Shown piece by piece: positions 9,001 through 12,000 of a DNA stretch of 13,516 nt. Position 1 is the stretch's first letter, and every line of letters starts with the position of its first letter. A program made the position numbers. Origin of the DNA: a virus (Duplodnaviria > Heunggongvirae > Uroviricota > Caudoviricetes); the IMG/VR virus record IMGVR_UViG_2671180656_000012, positions 1-13,516 of that record; one strand, given 5' to 3'.

Positions 9001-12000
9001 CAACGAAAAAGAAACGATAGTATCAAAAAAAATCTTGCCACACATTGATACCTTAGTTACCATAAAACAAAAATCGTAACTGAGGTATCAGCCAATGCAC
9101 CACAACAAAGCCACAACCCTTGACTGCCTCGAAGAGCTAAAAAATCTCGGCAGCCTCATTACATTAATAGCAAAATCAGCCCAGGACACTACACTCTCTA
9201 ACGATATAGAGTCATGCGCTGGGCTCGCATGGGATATGGCAAATAGCATATCTCGCAAGTTATCAGGATCCATATTTTTACAGACTCCAAATACAGAAAC
9301 AAACTCCCGCATTCGCATGCAACGTGAAGCCTGCGGCTTGACGACCACTGAACTTGCCAGACTACTCGATCTTGACGAAGAGATTATTCTGCAATGGGAG
9401 AGCAGAGAGTGCGAGCCAACCATCAGCATGCTTATCCCCCTGGCAAACATCCTGGGATGCGAACCGCTTTCTTTGCTGGATGAAAAAGATAGCGCGTCTG
9501 TTATTCGCGTAAATGCGCCTGAAGTCTACGTGGAAAGTATTGGCGCACGCATCAAAAGCGCACGTAAAAAACTGGGCTTAACGGAAGCTGATCTTGCCCG
9601 CATGATTAATACCTACAGTGACCCCATAAACGACTGGGAATGCGGCATCTGTGAAGTTCCTGCTGATCAGATAGTACCACTGGCCAGTGCGCTTAATTGT
9701 GACCTGGTGTGGTTGTTAACGGGAAAATCAGAAGCAAAGGAGTAGCAACAATGACTGGCAATATCCATGATAAGTATGAAGGCTTATGCCTGGCACCGGA
9801 TTCCTTTGCAAACAATATCCATGATTTATTATGCGCAGTTGTCGTATTACAAATGTCAGACAACGATGCAATAAAAAGAACAGGTGATGAAGTTCTTGAA
9901 TTTGCACGTTGCTATGCTGAAGCAGCAGCTGAAAAAGAACTATCCAGTTAAATAAAACATATTATCGCTGAACAATATATTACGGCTTAATCGCCGGGGA
10001 TTATCACACACTTAATCCACTGGAGGCTTTATTATGACTTTTATAAAACATAAGGCATCACACAAAACAGCCTGTCTTATTGCACAACACGGTGAAAATT
10101 ACATGCATATTGCCTGCTTATTTCTGCGTAAAGCATACGGGAGATAATAATGCATCAGAAAACAGCAGAACACGAACAAACCAGAGTATTGCTGACAATC
10201 AAAAACGGGAAAGTAATATTCATTCGCCATGTTCATGACGATGAACTTGTAGGAAGTCTTTCAACATTCCTGTTTATTGCAGAAAAGGCAGGATATGACG
10301 TTATTGCACCAGCAGATGAAGATGAGGAGTAAATATCATGCAATACGCTGAATTCCAGGCTGAAGCAACAGCCACAGGTATACGAACTGGCAGTATGACG
10401 ATTGATTATCACGACGCAATCCGCCGTCTGGATGCCGGTGAATTCGATCATCCTAATGTGAAAGGTTTACGTATCCTTCAGTGTCTCGCGCAAGCTGACG
10501 AAGCAGGATTACTGGGAAAACTTCCGGTTGAGATGAAGGTTGCCCAGTGGCGATGGTTGTATGTGACGACATTCATCAACGAAGAAGAAGACAAGAACGG
10601 CACAATTGATATCCCGAATGAACACGGAACAACAAATCGCGCCGTAGTATATAACGGGAAGCATGGGTTTATGACGATATATCCCAGTCCCATTCGTTTT
10701 GCCTTACAACAGTATATTGAATGGAATTTAATTCAAAAATACGGCGAGGCAGAAGGAATGGGTAGAGCGCTGTTTCTTTATCAGAAAATGCTCATTACAT
10801 GCCCAGATAAAGGTTTCATTGTTTCAGACATGGGGCGAGAAGGGCTTGAACTCCTTCTGGATGAAATTATTAACGAAATGAATACTCATAGCATGCAATC
10901 AGAAACCTCTATTAACTAAAAGGGACTACATGACCGTTATCGAATATATCCAGGAAAATCCAGATTGCAGTAGAGAAGATATATCCCTCGCACTTGGAAG
11001 AAGCGGAGTTTCTATCAGTAATGAATTATCACGGTTACTGTGGAATGGGTTAATTGTACGAACTGGTGAAAAAAACAAAATGATTCTGTATCGCGTAAAC
11101 AATCTGCCGTTTGGATACAACAATCCCCTGAGCGTTATGTTCAACCAGTTACTTAAACAGGTAAGAAAGTCTGATGGCGACTGACTCACAACTAACCATA
11201 GATACGGCTCTTAATGTCGGTCTGGCGCTCCTTGGTTATTTCTACATCATGTTCTGCAGCGGACGATGGCTGTCACTGTTGTTCATGAAAAAATGGAATA
11301 AACGCCGTAAGCAGGATCAACGCCAGAAGGCAATGGATGCATTTTTCGAAGCCTTCGGGATTGACGGCATGGAACCAGGGGATCCAGCTCGCGCAATTAG
11401 CAGAGGGGGCGTAGTAATCCTTGTATATCGGAGTGAAGAGAAAAATGAGCGAGATCAACTATCAGGCACTGCGTGAGGCGGCAGTAGCAATTGAAACAGT
11501 AGCAACGCCTCAAAAATTGCTGGCATTTCGTATGAAAGTCACACCGTCGGTGGTACTGGCGCTGCTGGATGAACGAGATGCATTAAACGAACGCATAGCC
11601 GAACTGGAGGCTAATTTAGCGGAGCTGGCCGAAGACCAACAGAAAGCGATTGAGTCAATTAAGCAGGCTGATGCGGCTGTTAAGTTGGCACACGAGAAGT
11701 TTTCGGTGCTGGCGGCAGAGAATGCGGAGCTTAAACAGTCGGAGAAGGAATTTAATAACTTCTGTCGTCAGGAGTACTACGGTTGGGAGGACAACTTCAC
11801 GGAAACCCCAGCCACCGACGCTTTCCTGGCTGAAATTCGTGCGGCGGCTCGCAACGAGGGTATTAACTATACCGCAAGCCGTCTTGCTGCTGCTTTCAAT
11901 CACGGATTTATCAATAAGTCTTTGCGTGAAGTTTTCGACGTTACACGCATGATTTTATCAGCGAAAGAAGAGTTGGCTAATGAAGCGCATCCGATTGATG

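Follow-up and report, generated by a model that had tools for sequence, protein, structure and literature searches.

Six small genes in the predicted early-left operon of a lambdoid Shiga-toxin-type prophage of Escherichia coli form a chain of exchangeable cassettes

Six short open reading frames (ORF1 to ORF6) in a stretch of phage DNA of 13,516 nt, which at its full length is called the window here, are a chain of exchangeable cassettes and not one system. We consider it moderately probable that they are genuine accessory genes of a CI-repressed early-left (PL) operon, most likely tuning early development and host physiology. A dedicated anti-defence function, for which a preceding sequence-only reading had put them forward as candidates, is less likely than such tuning.

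The window stretch matches, at 100% identity, prophages located at yecE and Stx1a phages from E. coli O145:H28/O111, and the region can be assigned from its sequence to a lambdoid Shiga-toxin-type prophage of E. coli integrated at yecE. The six ORFs are already public as hypothetical proteins: the RefSeq annotation has five of them at the same coordinates and omits ORF2, while DDBJ record LC567819 has all six. No paper on DUF4752, on the RefSeq accessions, or on phrog_1515 came up in literature searches. The sequence-only reading had described six ORFs of 37–193 aa at positions 9751–11476, and this was borne out, with all six on the plus strand and each starting with ATG (Table 1). It had also ascribed to them good Shine-Dalgarno (SD) sequences and no recognisable families. 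The former applies to ORF1 to ORF4 (AGGAG, GGAGG, GGAG, and AGGAG, respectively, 6–8 nt upstream) and not to ORF5 and ORF6, which have no core SD match. The latter had to be abandoned: ORF6 belongs to Pfam family DUF4752, and ORF1, ORF3, ORF4, ORF5, and ORF6 match PHROGs 4587, 340, 1515, 1687, and 667 with E-values from 1e-22 to 1e-91, leaving only ORF2 without a family match in Pfam, PHROG, NCBIfam, and PADLOC. An Rfam scan of positions 8950–11550 found no RNA family, a tRNA search gave none, and a repeat search gave nothing meaningful.

Table 1. Position and characteristics of the six ORFs and of the neighbouring features in the window.
Feature	Position	Strand	Characteristics	Basis
Operator-like cluster (OL) with candidate PL promoter	9019..9090	+	putative function	half-site motif and consensus scan
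Tandem-HTH (XRE-type) regulator	9095..9745	+	216 aa; predicted first PL gene	Pfam HTH_3 1.3e-13 in two stretches; phrog_4739 and phrog_4836 'CII-like regulator'
ORF1	9751..9951	+	66 aa; acidic (pI 4.4), helical	phrog_4587 1.1e-35
ORF2	10034..10147	+	37 aa; basic (pI 9.8)	GGAGG SD 7 nt upstream; not in RefSeq
ORF3	10150..10332	+	60 aa; acidic; phrog_340 domain (RVLLTIxNGxVI...DDE...TF...A..AG)	phrog_340 3.6e-22
ORF4	10338..10919	+	193 aa; stand-alone alpha/beta	phrog_1515 4.6e-91
ORF5	10930..11184	+	84 aa; putative small winged-helix (MarR-like) DNA-binding protein	phrog_1687 1.4e-24
ORF6	11174..11476	+	100 aa; DUF4752, predicted single-pass membrane protein	PF15944 4.5e-39
Two Ead/Ea22-like genes, operon continuation	11445..12886 (11445-12074 and 12038-12886)	+		Pfam Ead_Ea22 4e-10 and 1.2e-24

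For the analysis of ORF intactness and dN/dS, 83 related loci carrying ORF4 were used as comparison set. Purifying selection was detected on every ORF (dN/dS about 0.03–0.3 against related loci; 0–0.26 for ORF1), and intact alleles of the six ORFs were free of internal stops. These dN/dS values, the intact frames, and the PHROG and Pfam matches show all six ORFs to be protein-coding, genuine genes. This includes ORF2, which was intact in 82 of the 83 loci. Its 14 alleles (pS up to 0.68; dN/dS of 0.03–0.17) point to a real gene under strong purifying selection. Protein homologues of ORF2 were found in phage CharmingMan (57% identity, E 2.7e-10) and in a Klebsiella phage (L004, 1601–1699).

The early-left placement claimed before was confirmed. 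The block is preceded by cI and by a second group of repressor-type half-sites accompanied by a promoter-like site, its genes are co-directional toward the Ea22-like genes and, beyond these, xis and int, and a terminator search in it gave no convincing one. Because of this arrangement, the six genes are assigned to the early-left (PL) operon as mosaic and dispensable-looking accessory genes. Gene packing in the block is tight or overlapping. Both downstream genes were also matched by lambda Ea22 in phmmer searches (7e-7 and 1.8e-39). Half-sites with the motif RGTATCM were found in the operator-like cluster at 9019, 9046 (minus strand), and 9084, and a further three between cro and cI at 8256, 8288, and 8312; six of the nine occurrences in the window are located inside 206 bp, where 0.05 would be expected, and the motif, shared by the intergenic regions on either side of cI, is nearly restricted to these two. 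A consensus scan gave a promoter-like site (TTGCCA-17-TACCAT) at 9035–9063. The half-site cluster and this promoter-like site within 9019–9090 therefore led us to place the genes in a CI-controlled PL operon, for which gene order, the shared half-site motif, and the promoter-like site speak. Repressor binding is predicted, and control of PL by CI is proposed on the basis of motif enrichment and consensus scan. Promoter-like sites within the block (9805–9832 and 10192–10219) occurred at the frequency expected by chance.

Partial matches in 858 E. coli records revealed mosaic breaks near gene edges at about 9889/9951, 10150, 10896, 11193, and 11452. ORF5 and ORF6 are swapped independently, and of the 83 loci with ORF4 only 8 gave a full-length match to ORF5 at the DNA level. 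Within the phiP27/Stx lineage the order is kept, with the regulator and an ORF1-domain protein followed by ORF2 and then by ORF3 and ORF4. The HTH regulator followed by an ORF1-domain protein was found in essentially all 80 related loci, and the 83 loci carrying ORF4 also have ORF2 (82) and ORF3 (77). The Klebsiella/CharmingMan lineage retains ORF2, an ORF3-like gene, and ORF4, the latter at 41–44% identity, and a few genomes have ORF2 without ORF3 and ORF4. A fixed order inside one phage lineage can reflect common descent instead of functional coupling.

ORF1 weakly matched the N-terminus of phrog_4836, and its HMM aligned with residues 24–70 of regulators encoded in two sister prophages (L084, 3796–4257, and L014, 3716–4159) with E-values of about 6e-10. 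ORF1 thus corresponds to the N-terminal domain of the HTH regulator nearest PL in sister prophages, encoded here as a protein of its own. Similarity to the N-terminus of the regulator in the window itself was not found; the homology is to an alternative regulator allele in the sister prophages. Because of its homology to the N-terminal domain of an HTH regulator, a regulatory role is suggested for ORF1.

ORF3 showed weak matches to the C-terminal ends of the 'anti-repressor' PHROGs 4792 and 2379, and in a satellite locus (L095) its domain forms the C-terminus of a 213-aa protein encoded two genes upstream of the ORF4 homologue. In 79 of 80 Klebsiella/CharmingMan loci, the ORF3-like gene is directly followed and overlapped by a ParE-like toxin gene (Pfam ParE_like PF24732, 4.3e-20). 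With this pairing of its homologues and with its small size and acidity, ORF3 could be seen as an orphan antitoxin-like protein able to neutralise a related toxin of the host or of a prophage, a reading we regard as improbable. A phmmer search including all window ORFs found no ParE-like gene in the window, i.e. ORF3 has no adjacent cognate toxin gene there and is not classified as member of a type II toxin-antitoxin system. Moreover, the paired homologues have about 25 N-terminal residues that ORF3 lacks, the adjacency of ORF3-like and ParE-like genes stems from one lineage (72–94% identity) and hence counts as about one observation, and the ORF3 domain is also fused to unrelated proteins. 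A word-indexed homologue search with ORF3 gave close relatives only. A match of ORF3 to lambda orf60a was rejected as spurious, as it covered 23 residues, was out of register, and was absent when the ORF3 family HMM was used.

An exhaustive profile search gave 119 representative clusters for the ORF4 family, almost all with proteins of 190–220 aa. The AlphaFold2 (AF2) model of ORF4 (pLDDT 88.1, pTM 0.83) allowed the structural homology search that the sequence-only reading had recommended; Foldseek comparison of this model with PDB and BFVD gave no match with E<=0.001, and the best matches, eS19 ribosomal proteins and the like, were dismissed as noise (E 0.07–0.2, TM<0.3). Searches of PDB chains with the sequences of ORF1, ORF3, ORF4, ORF5, and ORF6 and with the family profiles of ORF3, ORF4, and ORF6 yielded nothing meaningful. 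Longer proteins of the ORF4 family (P0050, P0085, P0086, P0131) gave no fusion clue, as none has a Pfam domain and read-through or frameshift is their apparent origin. Two distant ORF4 relatives bore a faint DUF5375 label, which hmmscan did not confirm.

ORF4 is present in the early-left operon of phiP27, of Klebsiella phages, and of CharmingMan. In three independent P4/PICI-like elements its homologue is located upstream of a primase/helicase gene (Zn_Ribbon_Prim-Toprim-DUF927/D5_N), directly in two of them and three small genes off in the third. This neighbourhood is not predicted by the idea of a developmental modulator, and would fit an accessory factor of replication or DNA metabolism, e.g. 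an initiator or primase partner, which is not directed at the host. We nevertheless rate this function as quite improbable: in lambdoid phages, ORF4 is part of the PL operon and the replication genes (O/DnaC/DnaB) are located across the immunity region; in the satellites, all early accessory genes sit between alpA and the primase gene, so that the adjacency is expected from the layout; and neither a nucleic-acid-binding nor an enzymatic fold was detected in the ORF4 model. Among plasmids, 23 matches to ORF4 were obtained, all non-mobilizable and most of them phage-sized or smaller (12–42 kb; three of 150–393 kb), and in these matches ORF4 was not found in leading regions of conjugative plasmids. 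A more far-reaching and rather unlikely proposal is that ORF4 (phrog_1515), alone or with ORF2 and ORF3, whose genes directly precede it in fixed order, represents a new family of early effectors with a previously unseen fold, common to temperate enterobacterial phages and P4/PICI-like satellites, which would use it to switch off an immune or stress pathway of the host as lytic growth begins.

The winged helix proposed earlier for ORF5 was weakly supported. Its PHROG carries the label 'MarR family', but all Pfam hits were below cut-off (MarR_2, 0.0018, 18.8 bits with a cut-off of 27; HTH_Crp_2, 0.014; HTH_24), as was the NCBIfam hit to Sta1 (18.5 with a cut-off of 80). With its 84 aa, ORF5 corresponds to the wHTH core only, without the MarR dimerisation helices; homologues in P88-like phages are annotated as MarR-type.

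ORF6 is a full-length member of DUF4752 (PF15944; 132.8 bits with a cut-off of 27, model positions 2–84 of 84), and its homologues have the same precomputed domain. The transmembrane segment predicted before was supported by a Kyte-Doolittle maximum (19 residues) of 1.55 at residue 12, ahead of a KKWNKRRK stretch, and by an AF2 model of low confidence (pLDDT 68) with one long helix (residues 4–61). N-out/C-in is the predicted topology, with basic residues next to the membrane segment and a short beta-hairpin at the C-terminus. Since the last 11 nt of ORF5 also belong to ORF6, coupling of the two genes is suggested. The family was found in 135 phage records, both in the early-left region (VT2-Sakai orf78, HK106 gp31) and in the nin region (ST64T gp30). 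An independent cassette that moves between these regions in many phages and encodes a predicted single-pass membrane protein might be a moron expressed in the lysogen, e.g. for superinfection exclusion at the membrane, as might other genes of the block. This we hold to be very improbable, as ORF6 overlaps both ORF5 and an Ea22-like gene in operon style, without an upstream promoter-like site of its own or a flanking terminator, and all contexts found for it are operons of early lytic growth, a class that is repressed in the lysogenic state.

By analogy, one or more of the ORFs may be an anti-restriction or anti-defence protein which is made at DNA entry or induction and inhibits host immunity by direct binding, and we judge this to be possible but unlikely. 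It is consistent with the predicted early-left position behind a repressor-controlled promoter, the equivalent lambda region holding Ral and Gam, and with the small and acidic ORF1, ORF3, and ORF4 (pI 4.4–5.0), since small, acidic, early, and accessory is the profile of many anti-defence proteins. Cassette-like turnover is typical of arms-race genes, and the ORF4 family, with its orphan predicted fold, is common to the early operons of temperate phages and P4/PICI-like satellites. However, the argument is one of position, ORF4 is absent from leading regions of conjugative plasmids, and ORF1 is tied to a regulator instead. No homology of the six ORFs was found by phmmer and blastp to every lambda PL-operon product (Ral, Gam, Kil, CIII, Ea10, Ea8.5, orf60a/61/63, SieB, and N), the only matches in this comparison being those of the two downstream Ea22-like genes, and none to HK106 Kil and Abc2. 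Scans of Pfam, NCBIfam, and PHROG, which include several anti-defence families, gave no match to anti-restriction or anti-CRISPR families such as Ard, Ocr, and Acr, nor to Tad, Gad, Apyc/Acb, or others. PADLOC-DB gave no significant match, with weak hits of ORF5 at the wHTH level (E 1e-4 to 3e-2) and of ORF4 to Csx20 (E 0.018). The sequence-only reading had named homology to characterised non-defence functions as evidence against its proposal; none was found for the six ORFs.

The preferred reading, tuning of early development and host physiology, can be outlined as follows. The block would be silent in the lysogen and, immediately upon induction or infection, be expressed as one transcription unit with the tandem-HTH regulator. 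ORF1, which travels with the PL-proximal HTH regulator, most likely modulates it via protein-protein contact. ORF2 and the pair ORF3-ORF4 look non-enzymatic and most likely act in the early lytic phase by binding proteins of the host or the phage, while ORF5 would act as a minimal winged-helix DNA binder and ORF6 as a single-pass inner-membrane protein of DUF4752. Collectively, they would most likely adjust host physiology and the programme of early development, a role for which the exo-xis genes of lambda and Phi24B provide an experimental precedent.

As it stands, the significance is small, as hypothetical genes were found where lambdoid phages keep such genes, in a sequence identical to annotated prophages. 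The gain lies in better-defined targets for accessory-gene screens of Stx phages, namely ORF2, which was missed by RefSeq, the tie between ORF1 and the regulator, the order of ORF2 to ORF4, and the fold of ORF4. If any of the ORFs controls Stx prophage induction or blocks defence, this would bear on toxin release and phage host range.

Compared with known systems, the six genes resemble lambda Ral, Gam, and Kil and the P22/HK-type Abc2 in operon position, early timing, and small size, without sequence similarity. In TF-smORF induction modules (Silpe et al. 2023, PMC10432266), the TF activates a neighbouring smORF that is transcribed divergently from it. The HTH regulator in the window likewise adjoins, near cI, a very small protein that belongs to no known family, but identity with such a module was rejected, as ORF1 (9751-9951) follows the regulator (9095-9745) after 5 nt, co-directionally and in one operon. 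ORF6 is 91% identical to VT2-Sakai orf78 of DUF4752. The Stx2e phage phiP27 has the same order of regulator, L08 (ORF1-domain), an unannotated ORF2, L07 (corresponding to ORF3), and L06 (corresponding to ORF4, 68% identical). It differs in that L08 has a 56-aa N-terminal extension unlike ORF1, its regulator L10 has one HTH and the window regulator two, and an SPFH lipoprotein follows downstream in place of ORF5 and ORF6. Unlike in lambda, the PL operon of the window phage is without exo/bet/gam, kil, cIII, and N and opens with the tandem-HTH regulator, and the six ORFs have no homologue among the lambda exo-xis genes. According to PMC3824215, PMC7093339, and PMC8614690, genes of the exo-xis region are early and alter lysogenisation and induction in lambda and Phi24B, with Ea22 being pro-lysogenic. 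The b2/exo-xis 'ea' region of lambda (ea8.5, ea22, orf61, orf63, orf60a) and that of Phi24B occupy the same site within the PL operon, with the immunity region on one side and xis-int on the other; they likewise consist of short, early, non-essential ORFs, and the block in the window runs straight into two Ea22 homologues.

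The six ORFs that follow the tandem-HTH regulator (ORF1-ORF6) are real but ordinary: they are hypothetical accessory genes, conserved and present in earlier deposits, of the PL operon in an Stx-type prophage that was already known. This prophage is lambdoid, and the window covers its immunity and replication regions and its early-left part (see table). Over positions 9700-11500, identity was 100% both to prophages integrated at yecE in E. coli O145:H28 and O111 and to nine deposited Stx1a, Stx2a and PPyecE phages. Strain 16003 matches the window perfectly as far as base 12298, and in this strain the operon runs on to xis and int, with DUF551 and DUF4222 genes in between. 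From 12298 to 13516, the window diverges from the otherwise identical O145:H28 prophage, starting within the second Ea22-like gene. Past this gene, two overlapping ORFs in different frames and without Pfam match were found, which may be one frameshifted gene. In the immunity region, Rfam matches to the C4 antisense RNA (78.8 bits) and to the Hfq-binding sRNA isrK (56.9 bits) lie within the 5′ part of the Ash/Rha-type ORF, whose product has Ash and Rha domains; the RefSeq Rha start is located further downstream. This region looks like the P1/P7-type C4 RNA control of an antirepressor, set in a lambdoid Stx prophage.

Features of the window discussed in the text
Feature	Position	Strand
Three co-directional genes (350, 130, 221 aa)	125-2232	+
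Q	2263-2610	-
DnaB-type helicase	2864-4264	-
DnaC-like ATPase	4261-5148	-
O-like protein	5150-6064	-
Ash/Rha-type regulator	6275-7297	-
C4 antisense RNA	6881-6968	-
isrK sRNA	6993-7069	-
Rha regulator	7300-8007	-
cro-like gene	8004-8231	-
RGTATCM half-sites, one side of cI	8256, 8288, 8312	
Probable OR operator set	8256-8318	
LexA-like cI	8341-8997	+
RGTATCM half-sites, other side of cI	9019, 9046, 9084	
Probable OL operator set	9019-9090	
Promoter-like TTGCCA-17-TACCAT	9035-9063	
Tandem-HTH regulator	9095-9745	+
ORF1 (66 aa)	9751-9951	+
Spacer with hairpin	9952-10033	
ORF2 (37 aa)	10034-10147	+
ORF3 (60 aa)	10150-10332	+
ORF4 (193 aa)	10338-10919	+
ORF5 (84 aa)	10930-11184	+
ORF6 (100 aa)	11174-11476	+
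Two Ea22-like genes	11445-12074, 12038-12886	+
Overlapping ORFs	12858-13064, 13042-13401	

Of nine copies of the half-site RGTATCM across the 13.5 kb of the window, six fall within the short intergenic regions on the two sides of cI, where about 0.05 would be expected for their joint length. The second cluster overlaps the promoter-like site, downstream of which the genes are tightly packed in the same direction. A terminator scan gave just two weak sites, both within coding sequence and fewer than in shuffled sequence. Therefore, the label 'early-left' assigned by the sequence-only reading was accepted. Clusters and promoter-like site together have the arrangement expected of OR/PR-PRM and OL/PL, and judged from these motifs the two sets are probably the operators of this immunity type; we infer repressor control of the operon.

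All six ORFs were confirmed at their positions, each with an ATG start. Five are annotated in RefSeq and all six in a DDBJ phage record. For a coding test, each was aligned to related loci drawn from IMG/VR and phage records. The frames remained open and dN/dS was 0.03-0.3; this excess of synonymous over non-synonymous change sets them apart from ORFs arising by chance. The evidence is clearest for ORF2, which is intact in 82 of 83 loci with 14 alleles; compared with the copy of the type found in the Stx2e phage phiP27, pS reached up to 0.68 at a dN/dS of 0.06-0.08. Recognizable homologues are an annotated 35-aa protein of phage CharmingMan and an unannotated one of a Klebsiella phage. The good Shine-Dalgarno sequences described earlier hold for ORF1-ORF4, which have a core match, but not for ORF5 and ORF6. 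The latter two share 11 nt, and ORF6 in turn contains the start of the first Ea22-like gene. The statement that no families are recognizable was wrong for five of the six, as Pfam and PHROG scans left ORF2 as sole orphan: ORF1 falls in PHROG 4587, ORF3 in PHROG 340 and ORF4 in PHROG 1515, ORF5 strongly matches PHROG 1687 (MarR/wHTH matches being sub-threshold), and ORF6 is a full-length DUF4752 protein. Its proposed TM segment is supported by hydropathy, by KKWNKRRK following the segment and by a predicted helix (residues 4-61) in a model of overall low confidence.

In 858 E. coli records the block is matched in part, and these matches begin or end near gene boundaries (about 9889/9951, 10150, 10896, 11193 and 11452); the block thus consists of exchangeable cassettes joined in a chain. 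In protein-level searches, essentially all of 80 related loci had the conserved 5′ part, i.e. the HTH regulator and then an ORF1-domain protein, either short (66-80 aa) or of the phiP27 L08 type (about 121 aa). Next come ORF2, ORF3 and ORF4. At the DNA level, full-length ORF5 and ORF6 beside ORF4 were present in only 8 of 83 loci. ORF6 is widespread on its own (135 phage records), either in an early-left setting (VT2-Sakai orf78, HK106 gp31) or, as with ST64T gp30, in the nin region. The 82-nt spacer upstream of ORF2, located at one of the breakpoints, contains a hairpin (CCGGGGAUUAU...UAAUCC-ACUGG; folding energy z = -2.35 vs shuffles) adjoining the GGAGG of ORF2, which could serve as translational control or processing site.

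An HMM of the ORF1 family matched residues 24-70 of the PL-proximal regulators of two sister prophages (L084, 3796-4257; L014, 3716-4159; E about 6e-10), whose HTH hardly differs from the first HTH of the regulator in the window. ORF1 is thus a regulator-domain paralogue that stands on its own. About 40% of related loci carry the allele with this domain; the N-terminal domain of the regulator in the window is a different one. Since ORF1 in addition always adjoins the regulator, its relationships point to a regulatory role via protein-protein interaction. The fused form is labeled 'CII-like regulator' in PHROG, and a CIII-like or anti-regulator function of ORF1 is a possibility.

ORF4 is the sole sizeable protein among ORF2-ORF4. 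An exhaustive profile search yielded 119 representative clusters, nearly all stand-alone proteins of 190-220 aa; longer members were dismissed as fusions, having no extra Pfam domain and the appearance of read-through products. The AlphaFold2 model is a confident alpha/beta fold (pLDDT 88.1, pTM 0.83), for which Foldseek against PDB and BFVD gave nothing at E<=0.001 (TM<0.3), and a PDB sequence search gave no match. The homologue always lies between repressor gene and int in phiP27, CharmingMan and Klebsiella prophage-like phages. P4/PICI-type elements with the layout int-alpA-...-primase carry distant homologues on the upstream side of the primase gene, adjoining it in two of three elements and separated by three small genes in the third. 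The ORF3 domain (roughly 42 residues) recurs in one of these satellites (L095) as C-terminus of a 213-aa protein two genes 5′ of the ORF4 homologue; it also weakly matches 'anti-repressor' PHROGs at their C-terminal ends. The order ORF2-ORF3-ORF4 persists down to 41-44% ORF4 identity, which is suggestive of a functional link; common descent would fit equally well. In 54 of 80 loci of the Klebsiella/CharmingMan lineage, ORF2 is followed by a gene for a 121-aa protein with weak similarity to ORF4 (C-terminal half), then by an ORF3-like gene and a gene with a ParE-like toxin domain, with ORF4 lying further downstream; as this lineage is narrow, its order counts as roughly one observation. The ParE-like gene (ParE_like, PF24732) directly follows and overlaps the phrog_340 ORF3-like gene in 79 of 80 loci (L005, 3129-3591; L004, 2060-2504; L098-L177). 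The two may be an undescribed toxin-antitoxin-like pair of the early-left operon; the window has no ParE-like gene. Several small early genes of lambdoid early-left operons also occur in three P4/PICI-like elements (L089, L094, L095), namely ORF4 homologues, DUF4222 and one for an about 65-aa 'MS..ITL.QAA.KA' protein, which Klebsiella phage L004 likewise has (1344-1532). Phages and satellites appear to draw early accessory genes from a common pool.

Anti-defence or host-takeover functions had been proposed for the six ORFs. That at least one is an anti-defence factor has a reasonable prior at this type of locus, but this analysis provided no specific support and for ORF1 the evidence favors regulation instead; we consider it unlikely. 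PADLOC, Pfam and NCBIfam scans assigned no defence or anti-defence function to any of them. ORF4 was absent from conjugative-plasmid leading regions, all 23 plasmid matches being non-mobilizable and most phage-sized or smaller (12-42 kb; three of 150-393 kb). We lean towards a broader view, in which these are accessory genes acting in early development and host modulation. If a prophage-borne defence or moron locus is sought, the horizontally acquired cassette just past Q on the opposite strand is a better candidate than the six ORFs. The GC content of its three genes is 0.30-0.37 vs about 0.5 for flanking phage genes; Pfam gave nothing significant for them, and their PADLOC matches were marginal (E about 0.007-0.008). 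This analysis adds the coding evidence for the unannotated 37-aa gene ORF2, the domain link of ORF1 to the regulator, the conserved ORF2-3-4 order, and the ORF4 fold without match together with its occurrence in satellites.

Compared with lambda PL products (Ral, Gam, Kil, CIII, Ea10, Ea8.5, Orf60a/61/63, SieB, N), the six ORFs showed no similarity, and only the two genes downstream of them matched Ea22; HK106 Kil and Abc2 did not resemble them either. TF-smORF induction modules require a divergently transcribed smORF (Silpe et al., PMC10432266), and this reading of regulator and ORF1 was rejected because the smORF is not divergently transcribed here. The closest functional analogue is the exo-xis region of lambda and Phi24B, in which early genes affect both lysogenisation and induction (PMC3824215, PMC7093339, PMC8614690); the likeness is one of position and Ea22 adjacency, not of homology.
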